Origin: Eledone cirrhosa
Taxonomy: Eukaryota
Direction: 5' to 3'
NCBI GenBank assembly: GCA_964016885.1
Contig: OZ024740.1
Span: 46,128,001 to 46,192,000, forward strand
DNA length: 64,000 nucleotides
Shown here: positions 1 to 52,100 of the stretch, piece by piece
Layout of the letters: the number at the start of each line of letters is the position of its first letter
Position numbering within the stretch: position 1 is the stretch's first letter
Position numbers and translations under genes: made by a program
The notes under the pieces: generated by a model
What the model was told of the DNA's origin: nothing
What the model saw: the letters and a program-made list of their open reading frames with translations, nothing else
The model's database searches: none

Positions 1-3000
1 GGTGTGTGGTGGTGTGGTGGTATGCTGGTGTCGTGGTGTGCTAGTGTGCTGGTGTGGTGTTTGGTGGTGTGGTGGTGTGGTGTGTGGTGGTGTGGTGGTG
101 TGGTGGTGTGGTGGTATGGTGGTTTGGTGGTATATTGGTGGGGAGGTGTGTGGGTGTGGTGATATAGTGGTGTGGTGGTATGTTGATGTGGTGGTATGGT
201 GATATGGTGGTATGGTGATGTGGCGGTATGGTGTTATAGTGGTGTGGTAGTATGGTAGTATGGTGGTGTGGTGGTATGTTGATGTGGTGTGTGGTGGTAT
301 GGTGGTGTCGTGGTGTGCTGGTGTGGTGTGTGGTGGTGTGGTGGTGTGGTGGTGTGGTGGTGTGGTGTGTGGTGGTATGGTGGTGTCGTGGTGTGCTGGT
401 GTGGTGTTTGGTGGTGTGGTGGTGTGGTGTGTGGTGGTGTGGTGGTGTGGTGTGTGGTGGTGTGCTGGTGTGCTGGTGTGCTGGTGTGGTGTGTGGTGGT
501 GTGATGGGGTGGCGTGTGGTGGTGTGGTGGTGTGGTGGTATGGTGGTGTGGTGGTGTGGTGGTGTGGTGGTGTGGTGGTGTGGTGGTGTGGTGTGTGGTG
601 GTGTGATGGGGTGGTGTGTGATGGGGTGGTGTGTGGTGGTGTGGTGGTGTGGTGGTATGGTGGTGTGGTGGTGTGGTGGTGTGGTGGTGTGGTGTGTGGT
701 GGTATGGTGGTGTCGTGGTGTGCTGGTGTGCTGGTGTGGTGTTTGGTGGTGTGGTGGTGTGGTGTGTGGTGGTGTGGTGCTGTGGTGGTGTGGTGGTGTG
801 GTGGTGTGGTGGTGTCGTGGTGTGGTGTGTGGTGGTATGGTGGTGTCGTGGTGTGGTGGTGTGCTGGTGTGGTGTGTGGTGGTGTGATGGGGTGGTGTGT
901 GGTGGTGTGGTGGTGTGGTGGTGTGGTGGTGTGGTGTGTGGTGGTATGGTGGTGTCGTGGTGTGCTGGTGTGGTGTGTGGTGGTGTGGTGGTGTGGTGTG
1001 TGGTGGTGTGGTGGTGTGGTGGTGTGGTGGTGTGCTGGTGTGCTGGTGTGGTGTGTGGTGGTGTGATGGTGTGGTGTGTGGTGGTGTGGTGGTGTGGTGG
1101 TATGGTGGTGTGGTGGTGTGGTGGTGTGGTGGTGTGGTGGTGTGGTGGTGTGGTGGTATGGTGGTGTGCTGTGTGGTGTTGTGTTGGTGTGGTGGTGTGG
1201 TGGTGTGGTGGTGTGGTGGTGTGGTGGTATGGTGGTGTGGTGGTATGGTGATATGGTGGTATGGTGGTATGGTAGTATGGTGGTGTGGTGGTGTGGTATT
1301 GTGGTGGTGTGGTGGTGTGGTGGTGTGGTGGTATGGTGGTATGGTGGTATGGTGGTGTGGTGGTGTGGTGGTGTGGTGGTGTGGTGGCGTGGTGGTATGG
1401 TGGTCTGGTCGTATGGTGATATGGTGGTGTGGTGGTGTGGTGGTGTGGTGGTGTGGTGGTGTGGTGGTATGGTGGTGTGGTGGTATGGTGGTATGGTGGT
1501 GTGGTGGTGTGGTGGTGTGGTGGTATGGTGGTGTGGTGTTGTGTTGGTGTGGTGGTGTGGTGGTGTGGTGGTGTGGTGGTGTGGTGGTGTGGTGTGTGGT
1601 GGTGTGCTGTTGTGGTGGTGTGTTGGTGTGGTGGTATGGTGGTGTGGTGTGGTGTGTGGTGGTATGGTGGTGTCGTGGTGTGCTGGTGTGATGGTGTGGT
1701 GTGTGGTGGTGTGGTGGTATGCTGGTGTCGTGGTGTGCTGGTGTGCTGGTGTGGTGTTTGGTGGTGTGGTGGTGTGGTGTGTGGTGGTGTGGTGGTGTGG
1801 TGGTGTGGTGGTGTGGTGTGTCGTGGTATGGTGGTGTCGTGGTGTGGTGGTGTGCTGGTGTGGTGTGTGGTGGTGTGGTGGTGTGGTGTGTGGTGGTGTG
1901 GTGTTGTGGTGGTGTGGTGGTGTGGTGGTGTGGTGGTGTGGTGGTGTGGTGGTGTGGTGGTGTGGTGTGTCGTGGTATGGTGGTGTCGTGGTGTGGTGGT
2001 GTGCTGGTGTGGTGTGTGGTGGTGTGGTGGTGTGGTGTGTGGTGGTGTGGTGGTATGGTGGTATAGTGGGGGTATAGTGGTGTGATGGTATAGTGGTGGT
2101 GTGGTGATGTGGGTGTATGGTGGTATGGTGTTGTGGTGGTATGCTGATGTGGTGGTGTGGTGGTATGGTGTTGTGGTGGTATAGTGGTGTTTTAGCATGG
2201 TGGTGTGGTGGTATGATGGTATAGTGGTATAGTTGTGTGGTGGTGTGGTGGTGTGTTGGAGTGGTGGTATAGTGGTGTGGTGGTGTGGTGGTATGGTGGT
2301 ATGGTGGTATGGTGGTGTAGTGGTGTGGTGGTGTGGTGGTGTGGTAGTGTGGCGGTATGTTTGTATGGTGGTGTGGTGGTATAGTGGTGTGGTGGTATGC
2401 TGGTGTGGTGGTATGGTGGTGTTGTGGTGGTGTGGTGGTATAGTGGTATAGTGGTGTGGTGGCGTGGTGGTATGGTGGTATGGTGGTGTGGTGGTATGGT
2501 GGTATGGTGGTATGGGGGTATGGTGGTGTGGGTGTATGGTGGTGTGGTGGTATGATGGTGTGGTGGTATGGTGGTGTGTTGGTATAATGCTGTGGTGATA
2601 TGGTGGTGTGGTGGTATGGTTGTGTGGTGGTATGGTAGTGTGGTGGTGTGGTGGTGTGGTGGTATGGTGGTGTGGTGGTATATTGGTGTGGTTGTATGGT
2701 GGGTATGGTGGTGAGGTGGTGTGGTGGTATGGTGTGTGGTGGTATGGTGGTGTGGTGGTGTGGTGGTATGGTGGTGTGGTGGTGTGGTGGTGTGGTGATA
2801 TAGTGGTGTGGTGGTATGGTGGTGTGGTGGTATGGTGATGTGGTGGTGTGGTGGTATGGTGATGTGGTGGTGTGGTGGTATGGTGGTTTGGTGGTATATT
2901 GGTGGGGAGGTGTGTGGGTGTGGTGATATAGTGGTGTGGTGGTATGTTGATGTGGTGGTATGGTGATATGGTGGTATGGTGATGTGGCGGTATGGTGTTA

Positions 3001-6000
3001 TAGTGGTGTGGTAGTATGGTAGTATGGTGGTGTGGTGGTATGTTGATGTGGTGTGTGGTGGTATGGTGGTGTCGTGGTGTGCTGGTGTGGTGTGTGGTGG
3101 TGTGGTGGTGTGGTGGTGTGGTGGTGTGGTGTGTGGTGGTATGGTGGTGTCGTGGTGTGCTGGTGTGGTGTTTGGTGGTGTGGTGGTGTGGTGTGTGGTG
3201 GTGTGGTGGTGTGGTGTGTGGTGGTGTGCTGGTGTGCTGGTGTGCTGGTGTGGTGTGTGGTGGTGTGATGGGGTGGCGTGTGGTGGTGTGGTGGTGTGGT
3301 GGTATGGTGGTGTGGTGGTGTGGTGGTGTGGTGGTGTGGTGGTGTGGTGGTGTGGTGTGTGGTGGTGTGATGGGGTGGTGTGTGATGGGGTGGTGTGTGG
3401 TGGTGTGGTGGTGTGGTGGTATGGTGGTGTGGTGGTGTGGTGGTGTGGTGGTGTGGTGTGTGGTGGTATGGTGGTGTCGTGGTGTGCTGGTGTGCTGGTG
3501 TGGTGTTTGGTGGTGTGGTGGTGTGGTGTGTGGTGGTGTGGTGCTGTGGTGGTGTGGTGGTGTGGTGGTGTGGTGGTGTCGTGGTGTGGTGTGTGGTGGT
3601 ATGGTGGTGTCGTGGTGTGGTGGTGTGCTGGTGTGGTGTGTGGTGGTGTGATGGGGTGGTGTGTGGTGGTGTGGTGGTGTGGTGGTGTGGTGGTGTGGTG
3701 TGTGGTGGTATGGTGGTGTCGTGGTGTGCTGGTGTGGTGTGTGGTGGTGTGGTGGTGTGGTGTGTGGTGGTGTGGTGGTGTGGTGGTGTGGTGGTGTGCT
3801 GGTGTGCTGGTGTGGTGTGTGGTGGTGTGATGGTGTGGTGTGTGGTGGTGTGGTGGTGTGGTGGTATGGTGGTGTGGTGGTGTGGTGGTGTGGTGGTGTG
3901 GTGGTGTGGTGGTGTGGTGGTATGGTGGTGTGCTGTGTGGTGTTGTGTTGGTGTGGTGGTGTGGTGGTGTGGTGGTGTGGTGGTGTGGTGGTGTGGTGTT
4001 GTGGTGGTGCAGTGGTGTGGTGGTGTGCTGGTGTGCTGGTGTGGTGTGTGTGGTGTGATGGTGTGGTGTGTGGTGGTGTGGTGGTGTGGTGGTATGGTGG
4101 TGTGGTGGTGTGGTGGTGTGGTGGTGTGGTGGTGTTGTGGTGGTGCAGTGGTGTGGTGGTGTGGTGTGTGGTGGTGTGATGGTGTGGTGGTGTGGTGGTA
4201 TAGTGGTGTGGTGGTGAGGTGGTGTGGTGGTGTGGTGGTGTGGTGGTATGGTGGTGTGGTGGTGTGGTGGTATGGTGGTGTAGTGGTATAATGGTGTGGT
4301 GGTATGGTGGAGTGGTGGTATGGTTGTGTGGTGGTGAGGTGGTGTGGTGGTGTGGTGGTATGGTAATATGGTCGTGTGGTGCTGTGGTGGTGTGTTGGTG
4401 GGGTGGTAGTATGGTGGTGTGGTGGTATGGTCGTGTGGTTGTATGGTGGTGTGGTGGTATAATGTTGTGGTTGTGTGGTAGTATTGTGGTGTGGTGGCAT
4501 GGGGCTATGGTGGTGAGGTGGTATAGTGGTGTGGTGGTATGGTGGTATGGTAGTATGGTGGTGTGGTGCTATGGTGGTGTGTTGGTGGGGTGGTAAAATG
4601 GTGTGGTATTATGGTGGTGTGGTGGTATGGTGGTGTGGTTGTATGGTGGTGTGTTAGTATGGTGGTGTGGTGGTATAATGGTGTGGTGGTGTGGTAGTAT
4701 GGTGGTGTGGTGGTATGGTGGTATGGTGGTGAGGTGGAATAGTGGTGTGGTGGAATGGTGTTGTGGTGGTGTTGTGGTATGTTGGTCTGGTGGTGTGGTG
4801 GTATGGTGCTGAGTTGGTATAGCGGTGTGGTGGTATGGTATTGTGGTGGTATGATGGTGTGGTAGTATGGTGGTGTGGTAGTATGGTGGTGTGGTAGTAT
4901 GGTGGTGTGGTGGTATGGTGGTATAGTGGTGTGGTGGTACGGTGGTGAGGTGATATGGTGTTATTGTGGTTTAGTGGTGTGGTGGTGTGGTGGTATGGTG
5001 GTATGGTGGTATAGTGGGGGTATAGTGGTGTGATGGTATAGTGGTGGTGTGGTGATGTGGGTGTATGGTGGTATGGTGTTGTGGTGGTATGCTGATGTGG
5101 TGGTGTGGTGGTATGGTGTTGTGGTGGTATAGTGGTGTTTTAGCATGGTGGTGTGGTGGTATGATGGTATAGTGGTATAGTTGTGTGGTGGTGTGGTGGT
5201 GTGTTGGAGTGGTGGTATAGTGGTGTAGCTGTGTGGGGGCATGGTGGTATGGTGGTATGGTGGTGTAGTGGTGTGGTGGTGTGGTGGTGTGGTAGTGTGG
5301 CGGTATGTTTGTATGGTGGTGTGGTGGTATAGTGGTGTGGTGGTATGCTGGTGTGGTGGTATGGTGGTGTTGTGGTGGTGTGGTGGTATAGTGGTATAGT
5401 GGTGTGGTGGTGTGGTGGTATGGTGGTATGGTGGTGTGGTGGTATGGTGGTATGGTGGTATGGGCGTATGGTGTTGTGGGTGTATGGTTGTGTGGTGGTA
5501 TGATGGTGTGGTGGTATGGTGGTGTGGTGGTATAATGCTGTGGTGATATGGTGGTGTGGTGGTATGGTGGTGTGGTGGTATGGTAGTGTGGTGGTGTGGT
5601 GGTGTGGTGGTATGGTGGTGTGGTGGTATGGTGGTGTGGTTGTATGGTGGGTATGGTGGTGAGGTGGTGTGGTGGTATGGTGTGTGGTGGTATGGTGGTG
5701 TGGTGGTGTGGTGGTATGGTGGTGTGGTGGTGTGGTGGTGTGGTGATATAGTGGTGTGGTGGTATGGTGGTGTGGTGGTATGGTGATGTGGTGGTGTGGT
5801 GGTATGGTGATGTGGTGGTGTGGTGGTATGGTGGTTTGGTGGTATATTGGTGGGGAGGTGTGTGGGTGCGGTGATATAGTGGTGTGGTGGTATGTTGATG
5901 TGGTGGTATGGTGATATGGTGGTATGGTGATGTGGTGGTATGGTGTTATAGTGGTGTGGTAGTATGGTAGTATGGTGGTGTGGTGGTATGTTGATGTGGT

Positions 6001-8905
6001 GTGTGGTGGTATGGTGGTGTCGTGGTGTGCTGGTGTGCTGGTGTGGTGTTTGGTGGTGTGGTGGTGTGGTGTGTGGTGGTGTGCTGTTGTGGTGGTGTGT
6101 TGGTGTGGTGGTATGGTGGTGTGGTGTGGTGTGTGGTGGTATGGTGGTGTCGTGGTGTGCTGGTGTGATGGTGTGGTGTGTGGTGGTGTGGTGGTATGCT
6201 GGTGTCGTGGTGTGCTGGTGTGCTGGTGTGGTGTTTGGTGGTGTGGTGGTGTGGTGTGTGGTGGTGTGGTGGTGTGGTGGTGTGGTGGTGTGGTGTGTCG
6301 TGGTATGGTGGTGTCGTGGTGTGGTGGTGTGCTGGTGTGGTGTGTGGTGGTGTGGTGGTGTGGTGTGTGGTGGTGTCGTGTTGTGGTGGTGTGGTGGTGT
6401 GGTGGTGTGGTGGTGTGGTGGTGTGGTGGTGTGCTGGTGTGCTGGTGTGGTGTGTGGTGGTGTGGTGGTATGGTGGTATAGTGGGGGTATAGTGGTGTGA
6501 TGGTATAGTGGTGGTGTGGTGATGTGGGTGTATGGTGGTATGGTGTTGTGGTGGTATGCTGATGTGGTGGTGTGGTGGTATGGTGTTGTGGTGGTATAGT
6601 GGTGTTTTAGCATGGTGGTGTGGTGGTATGATGGTATAGTGGTATAGTTGTGTGGTGGTGTGGTGGTGTGTTGGAGTGGTGGTATAGTGGTGTGGTGGTG
6701 TGGTGGTATGGTGGTATGGTGGTATGGTGGTGTAGTGGTGTGGTGGTGTGGTGGTGTGGTAGTGTGGCGGTATGTTTGTATGGTGGTGTGGTGGTATAGT
6801 GGTGTGGTGGTATGCTGGTGTGGTGGTATGGTGGTGTTGTGGTGGTGTGGTGGTATAGTGGTATAGTGGTGTGGTGGCGTGGTGGTATGGTGGTATGGTG
6901 GTGTGGTGGTATGGTGGTATGGTGGTATGGGGGTATGGTGGTGTGGGTGTATGGTGGTGTGGTGGTATGATGGTGTGGTGGTATGGTGGTGTGTTGGTAT
7001 AATGCTGTGGTGATATGGTGGTGTGGTGGTATGGTGGTGTGGTGGTATGGTAGTGTGGTGGTGTGGTGGTGTGGTGGTATGGTGGTGTGGTGGTATGGTG
7101 GTGTGGTTGTATGGTGGGTATGGTGGTGAGGTGGTGTGGTGGTATGGTGTGTGGTGGTATGGTGGTGTGGTGGTGTGGTGGTATGGTGGTGTGGTGGGGT
7201 GGTGGTGTGGTGATATAGTGGTGTGGTGGTATGGTGGTGTGGTGGTATGGTGATGTGGTGGTGTGGTGGTATGGTGATGTGGTGGTGTGGTGGTATGGTG
7301 GTCTGGTGGTATATTGGTGGGGAGGTGTGTGGGTGTGGTGATATAGTGGTGTGGTGGTATGTTGATGTGGTGGTATGGTGATATGGTGGTATGGTGATGT
7401 GGCGGTATGGTGTTATAGTGGTGTGGTAGTATGGTAGTATGGTGGTGTGGTGGTATGTTGATGTGGTGTGTGGTGGTATGGTGGTGTCGTGGTGTGCTGG
7501 TGTGGTGTGTGGTGGTGTGGTGGTGTGGTGGTGTGGTGGTGTGGTGTGTGGTGGTATGGTGGTGTCGTGGTGTGCTGGTGTGGTGTTTGGTGGTGTGGTG
7601 GTGTGGTGTGTGGTGGTGTGGTGGTGTGGTGTGTGGTGGTGTGCTGGTGTGCTGGTGTGCTGGTGTGCTGGTGTGGTGTGTGGTGGTGTGATGGGGTGGC
7701 GTGTGGTGGTGTGGTGGTGTGGTGGTATGGTGGTGTGGTGGTGTGGTGGTGTGGTGGTGTGGTGGTGTGGTGGTGTGGTGTGTGGTGGTGTGATGGGGTG
7801 GTGTGTGATGGGGTGGTGTGTGGTGGTGTGGTGGTGTGGTGGTATGGTGGTGTGGTGGTGTGGTGGTGTGGTGGTGTGGTGTGTGGTGGTATGGTGGTGT
7901 CGTGGTGTGCTGGTGTGCTGGTGTGGTGTTTGGTGGTGTGGTGGTGTGGTGTGTGGTGGTGTGGTGCTGTGGTGGTGTGGTGGTGTGGTGGTGTGGTGGT
8001 GTGGTGGTGTGGTGTGTGGTGGTATGGTGGTGTCGTGGTGTGGTGGTGTGCTGGTGTGGTGTGTGGTGGTGTGATGGGGTGGTGTGTGGTGGTGTGGTGG
8101 TGTGGTGGTGTGGTGGTGTGGTGTGTGGTGGTATGGTGGTGTCGTGGTGTGCTGGTGTGGTGTGTGGTGGTGTGGTGGTGTGGTGTGTGGTGGTGTGGTG
8201 GTGTGGTGGTGTGGTGGTGTGCTGGTGTGCTGGTGTGGTGTGTGGTGGTGTGATGGTGTGGTGTGTGGTGGTGTGGTGGTGTGGTGGTATGGTGGTGTGG
8301 TGGTGTGGTGGTGTGGTGGTGTGGTGGTGTGGTGGTGTGGTGGTATGGTGGTGTGCTGTGTGGTGTTGTGTTGGTGTGGTGGTGTGGTGGTGTGGTGGTG
8401 TGGTGGTGTGGTGGTATGGTGGTGTGGTGGTATGGTGATATGGTGGTATGGTGGTATGGTAGTATGGTGGTGTGGTGGTGTGGTATTGTGGTGGTGTGGT
8501 GGTGTGGTGGTGTGGTGGTATGGTGGTATGGTGGTATGGTGGTGTGGTGGTGTGGTGGTGTGGTGGTGTGGTGGCGTGGTGGTATGGTGGTGTGGTCGTA
8601 TGGTGATATGGTGGTGTGGTGGTGTGGTGGTGTGGTGGTGTGGTGGTGTGGTGGTATGGTGGTGTGGTGGTATGGTGGTATGGTGGTGTGGTGGTGTGGT
8701 GGTGTGGTGGTATGGTGGTGTGGTGTTGTGTTGGTGTGGTGGTGTGGTGGTGTGGTGGTGTGGTGGTGTGGTGGTGTGGTGTGTGGTGGTGTGGTGGTGT
8801 GGTGGTGTGCTGGTATGGTGGTGTGGTGGTATGGTGATATGGTGGTATGGTGGTATGGTGGTATGGTGGTATGGTGGTATGGTGGTATAGTGGTGTAGTG
8901 GTATA
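1..8905. repeat. G/T-rich satellite built from GGTGTGGT/GGTATGGT 8-mers and GGTGT 5-mers, with kb-scale block duplications
   Basis: Almost pure G/T on the + strand. Rare marker ggggaggtgtgtgggtg recurs at ~140, 2904, 5852 and 7319, and ttttagcatgg at ~2190, 5138 and 6606. All ORFs here are low-complexity artefacts. Confidence 0.97.
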
Positions 8906-15324: not shown

Positions 15325-16152
15325 GTTTTTTTTTTAACATTTAAGTATCAGATGAAAGAATGGTATTTAACTAATGTATTGGTACGCGATGGGGCCCACC
15401 CACAGCCCCGGCAGACAGAATGGAGAAGGCGTGTCCCCGGAGAACGACAAGGGAGACGCGCTGGAAAAGCCACTACAACTCGCGGGGCTCACACCTGCGG
15501 CTGGCCAGCTCAGCGCCTATGGTGGTGAGTAAGGAGGTAGCCCTGGGGCCGAGGACACCAGAAGTCTCTACTGCCAGGGGAACGACCGCAAACCTGTCGG
15601 AGAGCGACCGGTATTTGAGGAGTTTGGCCCCTTCAGCCCGACGTGCAGCAGAACCTGGGTCAGTCGCAGACTGCACCAGATTGCGGCTGCAAAAAGTGTC
15701 GGTGCAAGTGGTATCCCAGACGAGGGGTTTGCCACCGTGGAACGGGAAGATGGTCATGCCATCTGGCCTTTTGCCGTCCCCTCGATCCAGCCCCACCGGC
15801 TCGAGCTGGGAAGGGAAGCCTGCAGCGTCCAAGCCATGCTTAATGACCTCGTTGAGGGGAGCAAAGCGTGGAATGCGGCCGGCACTGTGGCGATAGGAAA
15901 GCGGGTGGAGGCCGAAAGAGTCCACGGTGGAACCGCAGCGACATTGGTGTGGCTGGCAGATCCGGAGGCCGAGCCTCAGGGAAACGCCGATTCGCAGGCT
16001 ATCGTTGTCTAGCTACGTGCCAGTGGAGAAGGAGGGCAGGGAATGGATACAGGAACCACTGTGGGGTTTGGAGGCCCCACGAAAATAAGCAAGGCAGTGC
16101 TGGTTGAGCTGGCGCGTGAGCCTGTCTGAAGTCAGGCTGCACTGGATGGCAA
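15325..16152 (-). mobile_element. 5'-truncated CRE-like non-LTR retrotransposon (RLE endonuclease end and poly-A tail)
   Basis: ORF 15473-15925 has EPVGLDRGDGKRPDGMT...LVWDTTCTDT...KLLKY...PLAVETSG (PD-(D/E)xK RLE). It closely matches ~47500-48310, and a poly-T run lies at ~15310-15337. Confidence 0.88.
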
Positions 16153-18279: not shown

Positions 18280-18445
18280 ACAAAGGGCTAAGTTGATTAA
18301 ATCAACCCAAGTACTTGACTGGTTCTTTATTTTATCCACCCTGGAGTTGGCGTTGGTAGGATTTGAACTCAGAAGGTAAAGTGCCAGAAAAATACTACAA
18401 TGGCATTTTATCCGACGCTCTAATAATTCTGCTGGCCCGCCATGC
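18280..18445 (-). mobile_element. tRNA-derived SINE related to family A
   Basis: ggatttgaactcag (B box, reverse complement) and tttattttatc. Confidence 0.7.
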
Positions 18446-18467: not shown

Positions 18468-18642
18468 TGGCAGTATCGGTAGAGGGTTGGACGCCATGCT
18501 TTCTAGCATAGTTACGTCCCTTTACGGTCTGAGTTCAAATCCAGCCGCGGTTAACTTTGCCTTTCATCCTTACGAGGTCGATAAAATAAAGTACCAGTAA
18601 TGTACTAGGTAATTGCTGGCCTTGTGCCAAAAGTAGAAACAA
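18468..18642 (+). mobile_element. tRNA-derived SINE, family A, with attatatt TSD
   Basis: ggcagtatcggtagag...gagttcaaatcc...gtgccaaaagtagaaacaat. The sequence attatatt is present on both sides. Confidence 0.85.
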
Positions 18643-18649
18643 TTATATT

Positions 18650-19262
18650 AAAAGCTGTGCAAATTAATCCTGCCGCCATTGATGTCCAACTAGTAGTAGG
18701 ACATATCAAAATATTTTTCAGGGCAGTCGTTGAACCTTTTCCCCCAGCTATATTTAGAGTGGGGGTAATAGTTGGAGTAGTTGTTGCACTTAGATTGATT
18801 TTTATGTGGGGGAACATAATAGTTATGCAAATTCATGAGTGACTCGACATTGGAGCGATTACGATCAAAGAACCAAGTAAGGTAAGGACAGCAGTCGAAT
18901 ATAAAGTGTTGTCCTTGGCTGTCTGTACACTTGCTATTCATGTCCGACTGATATCCAGACATATCCATAAACCTCTCGGGAAATTCCATGAAGTAACGAT
19001 AACCTGGACAGTTATTAACATCATAATGACCGAAACGGTGATACTTAGGTCTACCATTGTATCTATCGTTATCAGAATATCTGCCGTGGAATTCATAGTA
19101 TCTAGGATCCACCATTCTTCTTCCACAAGAATCCATGTATCTGCCTTGGAAGTCCATAGTCCTTTTGCTCATTGGTTCCATGTTGCCGTGATATCTAAAG
19201 CTGTGTATATTGAAATAGGAGAATTGGTCACCAAAACTGTAGGTTTGTTGGTTTGATTCAAA
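18650..19262 (-). pseudogene. reflectin: Reflectin-family sequence, degenerate with a premature stop (probable pseudogene or truncated paralogue)
   Basis: ORF 18690-19334 contains the N-terminal reflectin motif MEPMSKRTMDFQGRYMDSCGRRMVDPRYY (ATG at 19181), the repeat motif FPERFMDMSGYQSDMNSKCTDSQG, and a third motif CPEKYFDMSYY*LDINGGRINLHS in which TAG replaces Q. A candidate splice acceptor (tttcag) lies just upstream of 19262. Confidence 0.92.
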
Positions 19263-19398
19263 CTGAAATTTAAAGATGAATGCAGTAATTAACGAAAAAC
19301 TCAGTACAGTATTTGCAGGGTTTCTATGTGTCATATATACATATTACTATAAATGTTTCCAGACATCTATACAGACAAATTTACACACAAACAAGTAA

Positions 19399-26545: not shown

Positions 26546-26884
26546 AATCCAGAGGGTCGATATTTTTCTCTATATCTATTTCTCAGTTGCCATTTCTCTC
26601 TCCTCTCTAGAAGATATCGGCTGTGTTCAGATGAGGAGAAAGGTATGAACTCTGCCAGGTATAAAGATGCCCAAGACATGGATATCTATACCCACCAACC
26701 CAACCCAACCAGGTTAGAAAGAGAGAGGGGCGGTCTCGGCCTTTACTTTTCCTTTGGACAACATTATATAATGTGTACATATCGTGTGTGTATATAATGT
26801 GTATATAGTGTATAAATGAGTTGTGACATCCCTGGTGGCAAGCTGTATCGGAGGCGTGAAGAGGGCAGACAAGTATGCTTGTCT

Positions 26885-27416
26885 TCTATACAAACACCTT
26901 ACCCAGGCCTGTGTCTTGTGTTGGGGTGGAGACTAACCTATGTGTAAACCCCATGGTCATTCTATACAAACACCTTACCCAGGCCTGTGTCTTGTGTTGG
27001 GGTGGAGACTAACCTATGTGTAAACCCCATGGTCATTCTATACAAACACCTTACCCAGGCCTGTGTCTTGTGTTGGGGTGGAGACTAACCTATGTGTAAA
27101 CCCCATGGTCATTCTATACAAACACCTTACCCAGGCCTGTGTCTTGTGTTGGGGTGGAGACTAGCCTATGTGTAAACCCCATGGTCATTCTATACAAACA
27201 CCTTACCCAGGCCTGTGTCTTGTGTTGGGGTGGAGACTAGCCTATATGTAAACCCCATGGTCATTCTATACAAACACCTTACCCAGGCCTGTGTCTTGTG
27301 TTGGGGTGGAGACTAGCCTATGTGTAAACCCCATGGTCATTCTATACAAACACCTTACCCAGGCCTGTGTCTTGTGTTGGGGTGGAGACTAGCCTATATG
27401 TAAACCCCATGGTCAT
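26885..27416. repeat. 76-bp minisatellite, 7 near-identical copies
   Basis: Unit tctatacaaacaccttacccaggcctgtgtcttgtgttggggtggagactaRcctatRtgtaaaccccatggtcat starts at 26885, 26961 and so on to 27341. Confidence 0.97.
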
Positions 27417-27509
27417 TCGTGAGGAAATAAAGAAAGCTCTAGAATATATGCTACACTGATTACCTATTAATAAAAACAGTAATAAAGTGTCTTACTTGAA
27501 TGTCGAAAA

Positions 27510-37879: not shown

Positions 37880-40800
37880 TCCATCAGTCAACGCGATCAG
37901 TCGCATATTTTGGCGTGGGAGACTATTTATTAAATTTAAGATGAATACTATCTCCGACAGTAATGCCACAACTACAGCCAGGTTGAATAACTGGTTATTC
38001 TTCTAACTATCCCTTCTGAAGACACCTTTTATTCGAATTCGTAGAGATATCCGACTAAATACATAATTCATTTTACAAGGATGTGCTACAAACAGCATGG
38101 CTGAACACAACATCAACAAGAAAATTAAGGAAGTATCGAAGACAAATAACAAAGAAGGTAATCAAACTTTATTCAGTTGTAGCTACAGAAGAAACCGAAA
38201 TTATAAATCGCATTTCTCTTGGAGTTGCGAACTTAATAATGATTTATTTAATTGTTATAAAATGGCAAAAAACAATCCCCCCATTGGCTATATGAATAGA
38301 ATGAAGCTACACTGGGACGAAATGCACCCAGAGCTAAATTATTTCACAGCGAAACAATTACGCCAACAAGTGACGTTTGTTGAACGTAAAAATAAGATAA
38401 ATATTATTAATTGTAAGTCCCCCCACAACAAACATGGAATCAACAACACGTGCTACAGATCGCCATGCTACTAGACTTCCTAGCAGCCAGGTCGAACAGC
38501 GCCTTGAAACAACTATGCCTGTAAGAAACTTGACACCACCTGTACCATCTAAGTCTACCTCGAATGCTGGGGAAAACACTATCGATAATAATAATAATCG
38601 AAGAAATAATAATAATAATCGAATAAATGTGACACCACGTATACCATCCGAGTCTACCTCGACTGTTGTGGAAAATACTATCGATAATGATAATCAAAAG
38701 TATAAACAATTGAAAATTTCCCTCAACGAAATCTTCCAGAGAGAAATTAACTCATGTATAAATATCTCTGTGTTAAAATGACAATGGTGAATAAAAAAAC
38801 AAATAATGAAATACTACGTGTTATTGACGAAATAGGGGATGAATATTTACGACGGATAAAAACCCCAACATTTTGGCAAATCAACGCCAGTTTATATGCC
38901 TTAGCAATGACAGTGAAGCATTATCTTAGTGATAGCAGAGATATTAACAAGAACAAAACACCACCAAAAATACCATCATATATAACTAAAATAGAAAAAA
39001 AGAGTGCTGACCTACGAAAAAACATAGGACATGTGATAATGCTCCTTACATGCAAACAAACACCAAAAAACGTCACTCCTCACCAACAAAGAGTGAAAAA
39101 TAAAATAGAGACGATGTTTGGTAACAGTAGAATCAGAACTCTCCAATATAAGCTGATCACCCTCAAACAAGAATTGAGAGCTGTTAGCGAAAAACGCCGA
39201 TACCTGAAGAAGGTAGATGAGAGAAAAATGCTTAATAAAAGATTCATACGAAACCAAACATCACTCTATAGAGATATGAAGGGCAAAATAATAAGTGTCA
39301 CTGAGGCCCCATCCCAGAAAGACATAGATTCCTTTTGGAGAAAAATATGGGGTGAAAAGAAGAATTTCAACCAAGATGCAGTGTGGCAAAGAGAAATCCG
39401 AAAGAACTATTGCTCCTACACTACAACAAAAACATACGAAATAAGTGAGGGTACCCTTGAGACTGTGATAGGAAAACTCCAAGATAAGAAAACACCAGGA
39501 AGAGACATGATTGTCGGCTACTGGTACAAAAAACTAATATTCTATCGGAGGTATCTTACTGACCTCTACCAACAAGTTCTTAAGGGAGATACACTTATAC
39601 CAGAATGGTTGACATTAGCACAAACGTTACTGGTCCCAAAGAACAAAGACACCCACTTGGCAAAAAACTACCGACCCATTGCATGCCAGAACCTGATGTA
39701 TAAGATGTATACAGCCTGCCTCAACCTATTCCTCCAAGATCACTGTGAAAATAATAACATCATCACAGATGAACAAGCAGCTGGAAAGAAAAGGGTTTGG
39801 GGATGTGCTGAACAACTCCTAATCAACAAAGCTGCGATGTTGGAGGTGCGACAACTTAGGAGGAATATGACTACAGTCTGGCTGGACTACAAGAAAGCTT
39901 TCTATTCTGTTCCCCACTCTTGGATGATAGAAGCCCTCCAACTTGCTAAAGTCCCAGACATTATCGTCAGAGCCATAGAGAGGCTGTCTTCTTCTTGGGC
40001 TACTATCCTAAGGGAGGACTCTATTTTCACTGATAAAATAAAATATTGCAGGGGTATATTTCAGGGGGCCAGTATCTCTGTGATATTATTCATCTTGTCA
40101 TTAAACCCCTTGTCCTTTCTGCTCAAGAAATGTGAGGGATACATCATTGACTCACAGGAGGACAGAAATACAAACCTAACCCATAATTTCTTTGTGAACG
40201 ATCTGAAACTCTATGCCAAGAACATGGATGGGATGAAGAAAATTCTTGACCTGGTTACAACGTTCTCAAAGGATATAGGAATGGAGTTTGGCCAAGATAA
40301 ATGCTCATACATGACTGTAAAGTGGGGGGAAACAACAACCCAATCTAGCAACATTCTCATCAATGGCCTAACTGTTTCACCGATATCTGATGAGGACTGT
40401 TACAGATACCTGGGGATAGATGAGAACATATCCTATAATGGTATCTGTAATAAAGAACGCGTAACCAGGGAATACTACACCCGTTTAAGAAAGATCTGGT
40501 CATCGGAACTCTCTGCGCAAAACAAAATAGTGGCTCACAATGTGTTTGCTGTGCCTGTCCTAACACCAACGTTTGGAATACTCAATTGGACGATAGACGA
40601 AATCCGAGCAGTTGATGTTGGAACTCGAAAAATACTGAACAACACCGGAAACTTCCACATCAACAGTGACATAGACCGCCTTTACTTGAAACGTAAGCAG
40701 GGAGACAGGGGCCTAACATCAGTCCAGACAACATTTGAATGTCGCATCATATCTCTCCGACAACATCTACGAACCTCGAAGCGTAGGAGCCCGCTTCTCG

Positions 40801-41994
40801 AGCAAGTCTATCTGCATGAAACAGATAAGATCATGAGAGTTGGGAAGGAACTCCTTGAGAGATATTCCCTGTGTGATAATCAAAAACTCACACCCAGGGA
40901 TGTCGCTCAGCAGTATCGTAGTGAATCCATGGATGAAAAACTGCATGCCTATCAGCAAAAAATCATGCATGGATATGTTACCAGGAAGCTCCAGAGTGAG
41001 AGTAATATAGATAAGGAAAGTAGTCTATCTTGGACCAACAACCGCTATATTGGCTCCCACTTTGAAGGATACGCTTTTGCAATCCAGGAACAGGAGATTA
41101 GCACGAAATACCTGATTCACAAAGAGATAGGGATGCAGGCAAAACACCTAGATGTGATAACAAGTGCAGATTCTGCAGAACTAACATCGAGGATATCACC
41201 CATGTCATCAGCAGCTGTCCAAAGATGTCATTGCGGTACTATCTACCTATGAGGCATGATGTAGTGGCCAAAACACTGTACAACGCAGTTCGTAAAAAAG
41301 ATAGCCCCGATAATAAACACATTAAAAGCTACAGCAATGTGGAAGACATCCATGTACATAATATGAAAGAGTACTGGTGGAATGTTCCAGTAAAAACCCC
41401 AATAAAATGCAGGCATAACAGACCAGATATTATGATATGGGACAGGGAGAAGAAAACATGCACAGTAGTGGAAATTAGCTGCCCAACAGATGCCAATATA
41501 ATATCAAAGATTAGTGAAAAGGAGAATATTTATGCAGAACTGATGAGAAATCTGCAAATACTCCACCCTGATTACACCTTCAGATTTATGCCTGTGATTA
41601 TTGGGGCACTGGGATATGTTAGTAACTGCATCAATACAAATCTTGAGAAGCTAGGCTTCACAGGAACAGAAAGAACACAACTAGTTAGGAAATTACAAGT
41701 ACAATCCATTAATGGAAGAGTAAAAATATGTAAAACATTCCAAAAATTTTGCATCTAATAACTGCATATACACATGTACAGATACAAAGCATATACACAT
41801 GCACACATACAACTCAAAACATACACATCCACACATACAATAACATCCATATCTACACATGCATGCATGCAGACATACATACATATCTACCTAGTTGATG
41901 TTGTGTAAATTCCAATGAGAGAGTCTTGTGTCTATGTTAGAAACCCACTCTCTCTCTATTGGTAAAACTTTGTGAAATTATAAAACCAGAAGAA
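37880..41994 (+). mobile_element. Near full-length R4/Dong-like non-LTR retrotransposon (RT + CCHC + RLE), frameshifted, with (CATA)n at both ends
   Basis: ORF pieces at 38097-38474, 38434-38781, 38754-41252 and 41225-41758. RT motifs NYRPIAC, WLDYKKAF, GIFQG, FVNDLKL and YRYLG. CRFC..EDITHVISSC lies in the shifted frame, followed by RHD, RPDI..D, VEISCP and K..Y (RLE). Confidence 0.93.
38754..41252 (+). pseudogene. Reverse transcriptase portion of the LINE ORF (catalytic FVDD changed to FVND)
   Basis: 832-aa ORF with non-LTR RT motifs. The second copy reads tttgtggacgat (FVDD) at 42601. Confidence 0.9.
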
Positions 41995-42027
41995 CATACA
42001 TACATACATACATACATACATACATAC

Positions 42028-42390
42028 AGCTGCCCACTTGATGTAAACGTTGTCAGAAAAATACAGGAGAAGGAGGACATCTACGGACCGTTGATGAGGA
42101 GTTTACAAATCCAGTATCCAAGATACACCTTTAGCTTCATACCCATCATTATTGGAGCTACGGGTTAGATACCAACCCGCTTGGACCAAAGTATGACTGA
42201 ACTTGGATTTGCGGACAAAGGGCGCAGTTCCCTAATTCATAGTCTACAAATGGCTGCGATAGCTGGCACCTTCAAAATTTTCAAAACATTCTTGCGATTC
42301 AAGGGATGACAATTTCTTTTCTTTTACAACCTTGTCACCAGGAAGGTGGCCGGTCAAAAAAATATACTCGAAATTAAGAGAAAGAGATAA
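42028..42390 (+). mobile_element. 3' fragment of a different R4-like family (RLE end), bounded by (CATA)n
   Basis: SCPLDVNVVRKIQEKEDIYGPLMRSLQIQYPRYTFSFIPIIIGATG is homologous to, but diverged from, SCPTDANIISKISEKENIYAELMRNLQ, and the 3' UTR differs. Confidence 0.85.
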
Positions 42391-42447
42391 CATACATACA
42401 TACATACATACATACATACATACATACATACATACATACATACATAC

Positions 42448-44402
42448 ATAAAATATTGCAGTGGTATATTTCAGGGGGACAGTCTCTCTGTGATATTATT
42501 CATCTTGTCATTAAACATCTTGTCCTTTCTGCTCAAGAAATGTGAGGGATACATCATTGGTGCACAGGAGGACAGAAATACGAACCTAACCCATAATTTC
42601 TTTGTGGACGATCTGAAACTATGCCAAGAACATGGATGGGATGAAGAAAAATCTTGACCTGGTTACAACGTTCTCAAAGGATATAGGAATGGAGTTTGGC
42701 CAAGATAAATGCTCTTACATGTCTGTAAAGCGGGGAAAAACAACAACCCAATCTAGCAACATTGTCATCAATGGCCTAACTGTTTCACCAATATCTGATG
42801 AGGACTGCTACAGATACCTGGGGATAGATGAGAACATATCCTATAATGGTATCTGTAATAAAGAACGCGTAACCAGGGAATACTACACCCGATTAAGAAA
42901 GATCTGGTCATCGGAACTCTCTACGCAAAACAAAACAGTGGCTCACAATGTGTTTGCTGTGCCTGTCCTAACACCAACGTTTGGAATACTCAATTGGACG
43001 ATAGACGAAATCCGAGCAGTTGATGTTGGAACTCGAAAAATACTGAACAACACCGGAAACTTCCACATCAACAGTGACATAGACCGCCTTTACTTGAAAC
43101 GTAAGCAGGGAGACAGGGGCCTAACATCAGTCCAGACAACATTTGAATGTCGCATCATATCTCTCCGACAACATCTACGAACCTCGAAGCGTAGGAGCCC
43201 GCTTCTCGAGCAAGTCTATCTGCATGAAACAGATAAGATCATGAGAGTTGGGAAGGAACTCCTTGAGAGATATTCCCTGTGTGATAATCAAAAACTCACA
43301 CCCAGGGATGTCGCTCAGCAGTATCGTAGTGAATCCATGGATGAAAAACTGCATGCCTATCAGCAAAAAATCATGCATGGATATGTTGCCAGGAAGCTCC
43401 AGAGTGAGAGTAATATAGATAAGGAAAGTAGTCTATCTTGGACCAACAACCGCTATATTGGCTCCCACTTTGAAGGATACGCTTTTGCAATCCAGGAACA
43501 GGAGATTAGCACGAAATACCTGATTCACAAAGAGATAGGGATGCAGGCAAAACACCTAGATGTGATAACAAGTGCAGATTCTGCAGAACTAACATCGAGG
43601 ATATCACCCATGTCATCAGCAGCTGTCCAAAGATGTCATTGCGGTACTATCTACCTATGAGGCATGATGTAGTGGCCAAAACACTGTACAACGCAGTTCG
43701 TAAAAAAGATAGCCCCGATAATAAACACATTAAAAGCTACAGCAATGTGGAAGACATCCATGTACATAATATGAAAGAGTACTGGTGGAATGTTCCAGTA
43801 AAAACCCCAATAAAATGTAGGCATAACAGACCAGATATTATGATATGGGACAGGGAGAAGAAATCATGCACAGTAGTGGAAATTAGCTGCCCAGCAGATG
43901 CCAATATAATATCAAAGATTAGTGAAAAGGAAAATATTTATGCAGAACTGATGAGAAATCTATAGATACTCCACCCTGATTACACCTTCAGATTTATGCC
44001 TGTGATTATTGGGGCACTGGGATATGTTAGTAACTGCCTCAATACAAATCTTGAGAAGCTAGGCTTCACAGGAACAGAAAGAACACAACTAGTTAGGAAA
44101 TTACAAGTACAATCCATTAATGGAAGAGTAAAAATATGTAAAACATTCCAAAAGTTTTGCATCTAATAACTGCATATACACATATACAGATGCAAAGCAT
44201 ATACATATGCATACATACAACTCAAAACATCCACATCCACACATACAATAACATCCATATCTACACATGCATGCATGCAGACATACATACATATCTACCT
44301 AGTTAATGTTGTGTAAATTCCAATGAGAGAGTCTTGTGTCTATGTTAGAAACCGACTCTCTCTCTATTGGTAAAACTTTGTGAAATTATAAAACCGGAAG
44401 AA
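42448..44402 (+). mobile_element. 5'-truncated second copy of the R4/Dong-like LINE, followed by (CATA)n
   Basis: Near-identical to ~40038-41994. ORFs at 42632-43660 and 43633-43965. Confidence 0.95.
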
Positions 44403-45767: not shown

Positions 45768-46669
45768 TTTTATCTAAAATAATCTTTCTATAGTCAACTA
45801 TACTATGACAGCGACGGCGATGATGACGTCACATTTTGTATGTGAGTGTGTGTGTGTGTTTGTGAGTGTGTGTGTGTTTACGTGTTCGTTACATACGTTA
45901 AGCCTTAGTAAGTTACATATGCATACATCACGTAAATATTTAATCAGATACACAGAGAATTAAACACACACACACACATCTTCACACATGATGACTAACA
46001 AGTATATGTGTCTATGTGTGTGTGAGAGTGTAGGTGTATGTGTGTGTAAGTATACATTTCTGTGACGACTGAGGTTGGGGGAGGGTGAAACTGGGTATGA
46101 ATGTATGTGTGTGTGTGTTTTTTATAAGTTTGTGTGAGTATATGTGTGTCTGTTCGTGGGTGAAACTCTGTGTGTGTTTGTATGAATGTATGTCTGTGTG
46201 TGTGTGTGTTTATAAGTGTATGTTTGTGTGGGTGTATGTGTGTCTGTTTGTGAGTGAAACTATGTGTTTGTATGAATGTATGTCTGTGTGTTTTTTATGT
46301 GTATGTTTGTGTGAGTGTATGTGTGTCTGTTAGTTAAATTAGCAGTTAATACATTTGCTATTTGGTTAATTTGTTTATATTTGGTTAATGTACACTGCAT
46401 ACAAAAATAATAATTAATATATATTTCTTTTGGATGTTGATACTTATTTATTTACAATATTGAAAAAGAATGTCTTTATTCTAAGAATTCCTCTCATACC
46501 TACAACTGTTCCATATGAATTTAACATGCTTCAGTTTCCAGTCAAACTAAGTTTTGTTATTTCAATTAACAAATCTTAGGGTCAACCCCTCAAGGCAATT
46601 GGACTTGATCTCTCTACTACATGTTTGTCCCATGGTCAACTCTATGTTGGTTGCTCAAAAGTCGGACGC

Positions 46670-48342
46670 AGAGGGCGACCCTTTGGGACCCCTCCTGTTC
46701 GCCCTTGGTATTGACCACATCGCCCGGAGTATCACGGCCCCTCTCAACGTTTGGTATCTGGATGATGCTACGTTGGGCGGGCCCGTACGGACGGTCTGCC
46801 AAGACCTTCAATCGGTGATTCCTGCCCTGGCGGGAATCGGCCTCCAGGTCAACTCGGCCAAGTCGGAGGTGGTGAATGTCAGCCTCGATGCTGCGAGCTT
46901 TGCAGCCTCAGTCTTGGACGTGCGGTCCATTCTCTGCCAGGTTCAGGTGACCTCCAAAGAGGATGTCCTCATCCTCGGGTCACCGATCCACCCGCCGGCC
47001 ATCCGCTCCACTATCAGGTCCAGGCTTCAACAGTTCCAAACTCTCACGAGCCGACTGGGCTTGATCGACGGCCACCCAGCTCTCTTTCTGCTGAGGAACT
47101 GCTTCACCATGCCGAAGCTCCTCTATACACTCCGCAGCGCTCCATGCTACACACAGACATCACCCAGACATCGCTGACCTCGATACTTGTATCCGAGCAG
47201 CAGCCGAGGGGAAATGCAACGTCAAGTTTGACGACATAGAGTGGCAACAGGCCACTTTACCGGTCAGGTATGGCGGCCTTGGCCTCCGGTCCCCGATCTC
47301 ACTAGCTTTGCCGGCGTATCTTTCGTCGGTAACCTCGTGCCGCGTCCTCGTCAGCAGGGTTCTTCAAAACACAACAGAACCCTCTGTGTTCAGAGAACGT
47401 GAGGCCGCCTGTGAGACGTGGGACCGGATGGGACTTAGCCCAGTAGACGTCCCTCCTCCGTCTCCCCCTGTTGACGTCAAGTCCCCTCAACGCACTTGGG
47501 ATGCCATCCAGTGCAGCCTGGCCTCAGACAGGCTCACGCGCCAGCTCGACCAGCACCGCCTTGCTTGTTTTCGTGCGGCCTCCAAACCCCACAGTGGTGC
47601 CTGGCTCCATGCCCTGCCCTCCTTCTCCACTGGCACGCAGCTAGACAACCATAGCCTGCGTATCGGCGTTTCCCTGAGGCTCGGCCTCCGGATCTGCTAG
47701 CCACACCAATGTCACTGCGGTTCCATCGTGATCTCTTTCAGCCTCCACCCGCTTTCCTGTCGCCACAGTGCCGGCCGCATTCCACGCCATGCTGCCCTCA
47801 AAGAGGTCATTAAGCATAGCTTGGACGCTGCAGGCTTCCCTTCCCAGCTCGAGCCGGTGGGGCTGGATCGAGGAGACGGCAAAAGTCCAGATGGCATGAC
47901 AATCTTCCGGTTCCGCAGTGGCAAACCCCTCGTCTGGGATGCCACTTGCACCGACACTTTCTACAGCCGCAACCTGGTGCAGTCTGCGACTGACCCAGGT
48001 TCTGCTGCACGTCGGGTTGAGGGGGCCAAACTCCTCAAATACCGGTCGCTCTCCGACAGGTTTGCGGTCGTTCCCCTGGCAATGGAGACTTCTGGTGTCC
48101 TCGGCCCCAGGGTTACCTCCTTACTCACCACTATAGGCGCTGAACTGGCCAGCCGCAGGTGTGAGCCCCGCGAGTTGGAGTGGCTTTTCCAGCGCGTCTC
48201 CCTTGCCGTCTTCCGGGGAAACACCTTCTCCATTATGTCCGCCGGGGCTGTGGGTGGGCCCCACCGCGTGCCAATACATTAGTTAAATACCATTCTTTCA
48301 TCTGATACAACACAATAAAGACTAAAGTGTTAAAAAAAAAAA
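46670..48342 (+). mobile_element. 5'-truncated CRE-like non-LTR retrotransposon (RT C-terminal half + RLE), frameshifted, with poly-A tail
   Basis: GDPLGPLLF...WYLDDATL (RT), LPVRYGGLGLR, SGAWLHALP, and RH...EP...DGKSPDGMT..VWDATC (RLE). Conspicuously GC-rich. Confidence 0.9.
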
Positions 48343-49154: not shown

Positions 49155-52100
49155 AACACACGAGAAGGTAATACACACATCTAGGACCATATACAACACA
49201 CGAGCAGGTAATACACACATATAGAACCACATACAACACACGAGCAGGTAATACACACATATAGGACCACATACAACACACGAGCAGGAAATACACGCAT
49301 CTAGGACCACGTACAACACACGAGCAGGTAATACACACATCTAGGACCATATACAACACACGAGAAGGTAATACACACATCTAGGACCATATACAACACA
49401 CGAGAAGATAATACACACATCTAGGACCATATACAACACACGAGATGGTAATACACATATCTAGGACCACATACAACACACGAGAAGTTAAAACACACAT
49501 CTAGGACCACATACAACACACGAGAAGGTAATACACACATCTAGGACGATATACAACAGACGATAAGGTAATACACACATCTAGGACCACATACAACACA
49601 CAAGAAGGTAATACACACATCTAGGACCACATACAACACACGAGAAGATAATACACACATCTAGGACCACATACAACACACGAGAAGGTAATACACACAT
49701 CTAAGACTACATGCAACACACGAGAAGGTAATACACATATCTAGGACCACATACAACACACGAGAAGGTAATACACACATCTAGGACCACATACAATACA
49801 CGATAAGGTAATACACACATCTAGGGCCATATACAACACACGATAAGGTAATACACACATCTAAGACTACATACAACACACGAGAAGGTAATACACACAT
49901 CTAGGACCACATACAACACACGATAAGGTAATACACACATCTAGGACCATATACAACACACAAGAAGGTAATACACAGATCTAGGGCCACATACAACAGA
50001 CGAGAAGGTAATACACACATCTAGGACCACATACAACACACGAGAGGGTAATACACACACCTATGGCCACATAGAACACACGAGAAGGTAATACACACAT
50101 CTAAGACCACATACAACACACGAGAAGGTAATACACACATCTAGAACCATATACAACACACGAGAAGATAATACACACATCTAGGACCACATACAACACA
50201 CGAGAAGGTAATACACACATCTAAGACCATATAAAACACACGAGAAAGTAATACACACATCTAGGACCACATACAACACACGAGAAGGTAATACACACAT
50301 CTAAGACCACATACAACACACGAGAAGGTAATACACACATCTAAGACTACATACAACTCACGAGAGGGTAATACACACATCTAGGATCACATACAACACA
50401 CGAGAAGGTAATACACACATCTAGGACCACATACAACACACGAGAAGGTAATACACACATCTAGGACCACATACAACACACGAGAAGGTAATGCACACAC
50501 CTAGGACCACATACAACACACGAGAGGGTAATACACACATCTAGGACCACATACAACACACGAGAAGATAATACACACATCTAGGACCACATACAACACA
50601 CGAGAAGTTAATACACACATCTAGGACCATATACAACGGACGAGCAGGTAATACACACATCTAGGACCATATACAACACACGAGAAGGTAATACACAGAT
50701 CTAAGACCATATACAACACACGAGAAGGTAATACACACATCTAGGACCACATACAACACACGAGAAGGTAATACACACATCTAGGACCATATACAACACA
50801 CGATAAGGTAATACACACATCTAAGAATACATACAACACACGAGAAGGTAATACACACATCTAGGACAATATACAACACACAAGAAGGTAATACACACAT
50901 CTAGGACCACATACAACACACGAGAAGGTAATACACACATCTAGGACAACATACAACACACCAGAAGGTAATACACACATCCAGGACCACATACAACACA
51001 CGAGAAGATAATACACACATCTAGGACCACATACAACACACGAGAAGATAATACACACATCTAGGACCACATACAACACACGAGAAGGTAATACACACAT
51101 CTAGGACCACATACAACACACGAGAAGATAATACACACATCTAGGACCACATACAACACACGAGAAGGTAATACACACATCTAGGACCACATACAACACA
51201 CGAGAAGATAATACACACATCTAGGACCACATACAACACACGAGAAGGTAATACACACATCTAGGACCACATACAACACACGATAAGGTAATACACACAT
51301 CTAGGACCATATACAACACACAAGAAGGTAATACACACATCTAGGACCACATACAACAGACGAGCAGGTAATACACACATCTAGGACCAAATACAACACA
51401 CGAGAAGGTAATACACACATCTAAGACTACATACAACACACGAGAAGGTAATACACATATCTAGAACCATATACAACACACAAGAAGGTAATGCACACAC
51501 CTAGGATCACATACAACACACGAGAGGGTAATACACACATCTTGGACCACATACAACACACGAGAGGGTAATACACACATCTAGGACCATATGCAACACA
51601 CGAGAAGGAAATACACACATCTAGGACTACATACAACACACGAGAAGGTAATACACACACCTATCGCCACATACAACACACGAGAAGGTAATACACACAT
51701 CTAAGACCACATACAACACACGATAAGGTAATACACACATCTAGAACCATATACAACACACGAGAAGATAATACACACATCTAGGACCACATACAACACA
51801 CGAGAAGGTAATACACACATCTAGGACCACATACAACACACGAGAAGGTAATACACACATCTAAGACCATATACAACACACGAGAAGGTAATACACACAT
51901 CTAGGACCACATACAACACACGAGAAGGTAATATACACATTCTAGGACCACATACAACACACGAGAAGGTAATACACACATCTAGGACTACAAACAACAC
52001 ACGAGAAGGTAATACACACACCTATGGCCACATACAACACACGAGAAGGTAATACACACACCTATGGCCACATACAACACACGAGAAGGTAATACACACA

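Follow-up and report, generated by a model that had tools for sequence, protein, structure and literature searches.

Does the reflectin-derived reading frame in this 64,000-nucleotide stretch of Eledone cirrhosa DNA (here called the window) still encode a protein, or is it what remains of a gene? The earlier note had offered two readings, a pseudogene or a short, Cys-enriched divergent reflectin. Our analysis arrives at the same pair and upholds the reflectin origin of the frame, but it does not bear out the Cys enrichment. With a probability of about 0.55, we favor a short, motif-poor reflectin that has been kept as a protein under loose constraint, a reading drawn from the sequence of this locus and its relatives.

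The frame lies on the reverse strand and, read from stop to stop, is open for 217 codons (18690 to 19343). Within it, the 163 codons described earlier, from the MEPM start at 19181 to the TAG at 18690-18692, are unbroken and are matched in the genome protein search (18690 to 19181). The MEPM start has an A at -3 and a G at +4, and a sequence scan found no ATG between 19262 and 19182. A second in-frame ATG occurs further upstream, on the intron side at 19334; it is unlikely to be a shared start, since a second species (organism B, sequencing run X4; the source species of the window is A) carries a 7-nt insertion behind 19309. In all four paralogues described below, a CAG sits 18-19 nt 5' of the ATG. 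The copy has lost this ATG and reads CAT at the CAG position (19282-19280), although the former N-terminal coding stretch (19182 to 19257) is still open and is now likely a 5' UTR. Within the splice-acceptor region (19263 to 19282), TTTCAG ending at 19263 is a candidate acceptor. No first exon common to the copy and its paralogues was found in the 12-15 kb upstream, and apparent AATAAA-type words follow the stop at 18331 and beyond. The stop, where the earlier note had asked for raw reads, is covered by a 532-nt contig from runs X1 and X2 (both from a single sample that may be the source), which spans 18625-19156 with 0 differences and rules out an assembly error; in RAD-seq run X5, the gene had 0-2 reads.

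Four reflectin motifs can be traced along the frame, one more than first reported. The N-terminal motif (19101 to 19181) agrees with 23 of the 26 positions of the published consensus (scored against PMC9779258) once an extra Arg codon is skipped, compared to 23-25 in the four paralogues; the extra Arg is a 3-nt insertion absent from the paralogues and from organism B. The first repeat motif (18912 to 18989) keeps an intact first half, FPERFMDMSGYQ, followed by decay as the earlier note had seen, and fails the canonical pattern. The motif that had been missed (18813 to 18851) is heavily decayed, precedes a 15-nt in-frame deletion and aligns with the second repeat of the paralogues. The last (18660 to 18725), of the late-repeat type YSWG..PE.YFDM, is cut by the TAG; its local score of 103-114 exceeds shuffle maxima of 59-62, and every differing codon of the L-D-I-N-G-G-R-I-N-L behind the stop is, as claimed, one base from its counterpart in Q-M-D-M-N-G-R-W-M-D-M. 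No further repeat remnants were found beyond the SINE-like repeat that follows. The smooth gradient of decay toward the C-terminus gave way to a patchy pattern, with 4, 0, 0, 2, 7, 12, 4, 2 and 10 changes specific to the window copy in successive blocks of ten codons (P 0.00025); codons 11-30 hold none, silent or otherwise.

The canonical repeat, [M/F]D-X5-MD-X5-MD-X3/4, as defined together with the N-terminal motif in PMC9779258 and PMC9986269, has 0 matches in the copy and 4-7 in the paralogues. The relaxed domain of three M-Z repeats (10.64898/2026.04.14.718489), matched with our own regular expression of that definition, is present, at 2 matches compared to 7-8. Reflectins are typically rich in M, Y, W and R and poor in K, L, I and A. 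The copy has one MDM word where the paralogues have 8-10, a MYWR content of 28.8% (paralogues 31-44%) and a LIVAK content of 9.8% (paralogues 0.5-4.1%), with no Ala. Its 11 Met equal the number expected from neutral drift of a paralogue. The 7 Cys that had suggested enrichment compare with the 3.7-5.2 +/- 2 that a Tyr-rich paralogue would reach by neutral drift, a weak excess; since both residues lie within about 1-2 SD of neutral drift, an adaptive Cys enrichment is unsupported. A Cys in the N-terminal motif is common to the copy and the paralogue L002. Reflectins are described as disordered. Pfam returned 0 families for the copy, a result that is uninformative because the intact reflectins have no match above cut-off either.

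The window copy descends from reflectin genes and stands at the end of a tandem cluster. Its frame is similar beyond chance to a paralogue (E 1.8e-29) and to an Octopus bimaculoides protein (E 1e-32). Protein and DNA searches of the genome found five reflectin loci, all on the window's contig. Four are intact genes of 335, 368, 420 and 508 aa, at 45.769 (-), 45.749 (+), 46.094 (+) and 46.038 (+) Mb, 51-400 kb from the copy. A profile search confirmed that the 64 kb hold no other reflectin, and the search for neighbors outside the window that the earlier note had proposed yielded these four and a sixth, divergent frame. The gene is not isolated, as had been thought: 51 kb separate it from the nearest intact reflectin, whose end lies about 32 kb to the left of the window. 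The impression of isolation comes from the window edge, as the gene ends the cluster and is cut off from the next reflectin by a GT-rich satellite with an 8-nt unit (4 to 8902, continuing about 28 kb further left, about 37 kb in total). The cluster on the same contig rules out an isolated or transposed gene. Reflectin clusters are already known from octopods and squid (PMC9635652, PMC9068888, PMC6962438).

In a tree of the 15 out of 20 rows that were kept (the other five did not contain the stretch used), the paralogues fall among proteins of Octopus and Argonauta, which places the animal within the octopods, and the copy joins the L002-L004 group with weak support (83/81). It shares its N-terminal motif, first linker and first repeat with the octopod A-type reflectins (L002-L004; XP_014779614.1; Argonauta hians P0021), at 62-68% identity over the first 92 residues, as well as a single coding exon and a place in a tandem cluster. 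It differs from them in its length (163 aa compared to 335-447), its canonical pattern matches, its end branch (0.48, others 0-0.11) and the loss of the old start. Across the first linker and first repeat, L002, L003 and L004 differ from one another by one base at most, while their ends differ, a pattern that makes gene conversion among these paralogues evident; conversion has been reported for argonaut reflectins too (PMC9635652). Two pairs stand tail to tail, L003/L002 at 45.749-45.770 Mb and L004/window copy at 46.094-46.147 Mb, possibly through an old duplication of an inverted pair. In NCBI, the O. bimaculoides reflectin P0012 (XP_014779611.1) goes under the name 'TBC1 domain family member 5 homolog A', probably mis-annotated because of its low complexity.

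The sixth frame (45659529-45660137, reverse strand, about 490 kb from the copy) emerged in a profile search that took in 862 kb around the window. It is a very divergent reflectin-like frame of 202 codons from stop to stop, opens at a likely acceptor without a start, is rich in Pro and Met, contains GMxx words and a single, poorly conserved motif, and occurs once in the genome. It has 35% identity over 108 aa to protein P0011. Its layout resembles that of squid reflectin C when set beside the published description; one preprint calls reflectin C unique to Doryteuthis opalescens. A search of the ESM Atlas gave no usable match for this frame or for the copy.

The surroundings of the gene are rich in repeats. 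To its right, a 40-nt satellite (49155 to 64000) with units that match at 92% continues for about 130 kb beyond the window, about 150 kb in total. A high-copy SINE-like repeat (18470 to 18655, forward strand and thus antisense to the gene) lies 35-40 nt behind the stop, with up to 96 matches in the 862 kb and a sequencing-run depth in the millions. It is unlikely to have caused the TAG, as it lies behind the stop and the organism B contig leaves the alignment at 18673, before the SINE. The window also contains a non-LTR retrotransposon remnant, its family judged by eye, with a reverse-transcriptase-like frame of 833 codons and, in tandem, part of a second copy (38751-43965, forward strand), two pieces of GC-rich retroelement-like sequence (15375-16012 and 46551-48282) and seven copies, 99% identical, of a 76-nt unit (26884-27418). 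Rfam matches were all below the gathering score and on microsatellites.

Two traits of a long-dead pseudogene point in opposite directions here: stops and frameshifts have not accumulated in step with divergence, whereas the ratio of nonsynonymous to synonymous change is close to 1. Before codon 164, the 188 codons of the open stretch hold 0 stops and 0 frameshifts. At the fitted branch length of 0.17-0.22 per site, neutral change would be expected to leave 4.3-5.7 stops in 163-188 codons (probability of none 0.003-0.012, at t 0.19). By a rough repeat-based calibration it would also leave 4.3 frameshifts at the rate of the local repeat remnants (33 frameshifts in 741 substitutions, 0.045 per substitution; probability of none 0.014), or about 10 at the SINE rate (about 0.10 per substitution). 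In a codon-blind DNA alignment, 5 of 5 gaps are multiples of 3 against each of L002, L003 and L004 (24, 15, 6, 12 and 3 nt against L003), although some gaps arose on the paralogue branches and slippage between in-phase repeats favors in-frame gaps; among local repeats, 75-93% of indels are not multiples of 3. Compared with the more distant L005, 2 of 9 gaps are not multiples of 3 (22 and 1, net 21). Because the frame is unbroken as those of dead genes rarely are, a protein is likely still made, or was made until recently.

The amino-acid rate resembles that of a pseudogene. A codon model over 93 core codons gave, on the better topology, a branch dN/dS of 0.83 for the copy compared to a background of 0.125 (P 0.002), which is indistinguishable from 1 (P 0.82); on a topology worse by 4 log units the value was 0.45 (P 0.04 against 1). 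The earlier description of the gene as decaying holds for its amino-acid rate but not for its frame. By region, dN/dS was 0.6-0.7 in the motifs and 1.6-1.9 in the linker (difference P 0.01), with the motif value alone not below 1 (P 0.6-0.7). The patchy change and the difference between motifs and linker fit selection, but they also fit conversion.

For organism B, 18673-19342 is spanned by three contigs that abut end to end; they show 0, 0 and 31 gap letters and 8, 40 and 16 other differing letters. The gap letters comprise a net in-frame loss of 24 in the coding part and the 7-letter insertion on the intron side, and the orthologue has no net frameshift in its coding part. We read the 24 missing letters as the extra Arg and about 7 codons from the core of the N-terminal motif. 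The comparison with an orthologous locus that the earlier note had called for was answered in part: among the differences listed, 27 in 230 sites that lie for the most part within a single contig (with at least 40 differences overall), 10 are synonymous compared to 6.6 expected, a ratio of 0.55 (P 0.08), while the branch value does not differ from 1. Once polarized, the differences listed comprise 9 nonsynonymous and 4 synonymous on A's branch and 7 of each on B's, with 3 unclear. Also among those listed, differences affect 2 of 86 sites on the acceptor side and 27 of 230 in the coding part (P 0.008), and the former N-terminal stretch has 8 differences in 40 nt (19187-19226). Codon 129 of organism B has a C-to-T change that makes a stop as listed; the clipped contig end suggests that the third base also differs, giving either TAG or a Tyr codon. 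With at most 3 unlisted differences in 60 end positions of the contig, organism B likely shares the TAG at 18690. Three database searches and a HMMER search found no orthologous protein. Our literature queries, one of them swamped by 'reflecting', returned no description of the copy or of any reflectin pseudogene, and supplementary sequence sets may hold an orthologue; the argonaut study reports 'one possible ORF' in its reflectin cluster (PMC9635652).

For a function speak the unbroken frame, the in-frame-only gaps, the orthologue in organism B, the uneven constraint and the better-kept acceptor side. Against it stand the dN/dS near 1, the absence of a canonical repeat, the neutral Met count, the loss of the old ATG and acceptor, the searches that turned up neither an orthologous protein nor a shared first exon and, in organism B, the loss in the N-terminal motif core and the possible stop. 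Much of the latter would equally suit a duplicate that spent most of its history as a working gene under relaxed constraint and ceased to function only recently, at about the time of the split from organism B or later, leaving a young pseudogene that has no frameshifts yet, through the birth and death usual in tandem families. Motif decay that continued on both lineages after the split agrees with such a loss, as does the truncated reflectin of 100 aa that the O. bimaculoides annotation already contains (XP_014788524.1). After the split, just about 1.5 frameshifts are expected on A's branch (probability of none 0.22), and the unbroken frame is only moderate evidence over that span. However, the lack of any stop or frameshift on this branch has a rough joint estimate of about 0.04 if the gene was dead throughout, and the acceptor side is nearly unchanged between the species; we consider a recent loss possible, if somewhat doubtful. 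A pseudogene dead since duplication, its well-kept tracts refreshed by conversion from neighbors and its frame open by luck, would account for the conversion among L002-L004, the unchanged codons 11-30 and the overall dN/dS of about 1, but it is fairly well excluded and very improbable, as stops and frameshifts would both be absent with a joint probability of about 1e-4, the most diverged half is also unbroken without sign of conversion and with in-frame deletions only, and the intact half of the first repeat keeps silent states common to L005 rather than to L002-L004.

If the copy is a loosely constrained, motif-poor reflectin, its history would have begun with an ordinary octopod reflectin duplicated at the end of the cluster, after which selection may have preserved the open frame but left most residues free to vary. 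The TAG would be old, with the SINE landing behind it later. The transcript would presumably be spliced at 19263 and translated from MEPM, giving a protein of 163 residues that carries one N-terminal motif and half of a repeat motif. Peptides of the N-terminal motif assemble into Cu(I) trimers, and those of the repeats network through MDM (10.1101/2025.08.12.669908). Such a protein might join full-length reflectins via its N-terminal motif, and its single MDM word would lower the valency of the network. By analogy to squid reflectins B and C, the copy would act as a low-valency modulator of reflectin packing. Both of these proteins have few motifs and move the phase boundary of A1 condensates, and reflectin C raises fluidity (10.64898/2026.03.13.711711).

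The likeness to reflectins B and C of D. opalescens, drawn from their description, lies in their short, motif-poor build: reflectin B is described with the N-terminal motif and without repeats, and reflectin C with one poorly kept repeat (10.64898/2026.03.13.711711). Unlike the copy, both are proven proteins. The copy differs from them in its weakly supported grouping with octopod A-type genes (83/81), and its translation has no visible GMXX Pro-rich region as in reflectin C. The O. bimaculoides gene LOC106882379, which encodes XP_014788524.1, is likewise short with one decaying repeat, but it is only 54% identical, lacks MEPM and resembles L004 by eye. Octopus reflectins have already been reported as the most variable (10.64898/2026.04.14.718489). 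A bolder account, which we hold to be unlikely though conceivable, is that octopods built their own motif-poor modulator from an A-type duplicate in parallel to squid B and C, with the N-terminal motif kept, the linker positively selected (at its dN/dS of 1.6-1.9), the repeats traded for a Cys-bearing tail and the frame kept across species.

The gene family, its clustering and gene conversion were known already, whichever reading holds. A dead copy would be an unremarkable case of gene birth and death within a known cluster. If it is translated, motif-poor reflectins also occur outside loliginid squid, and the copy would be a natural experiment on which parts a reflectin needs, as it retains a single N-terminal motif and a single MDM word in place of 8-10.
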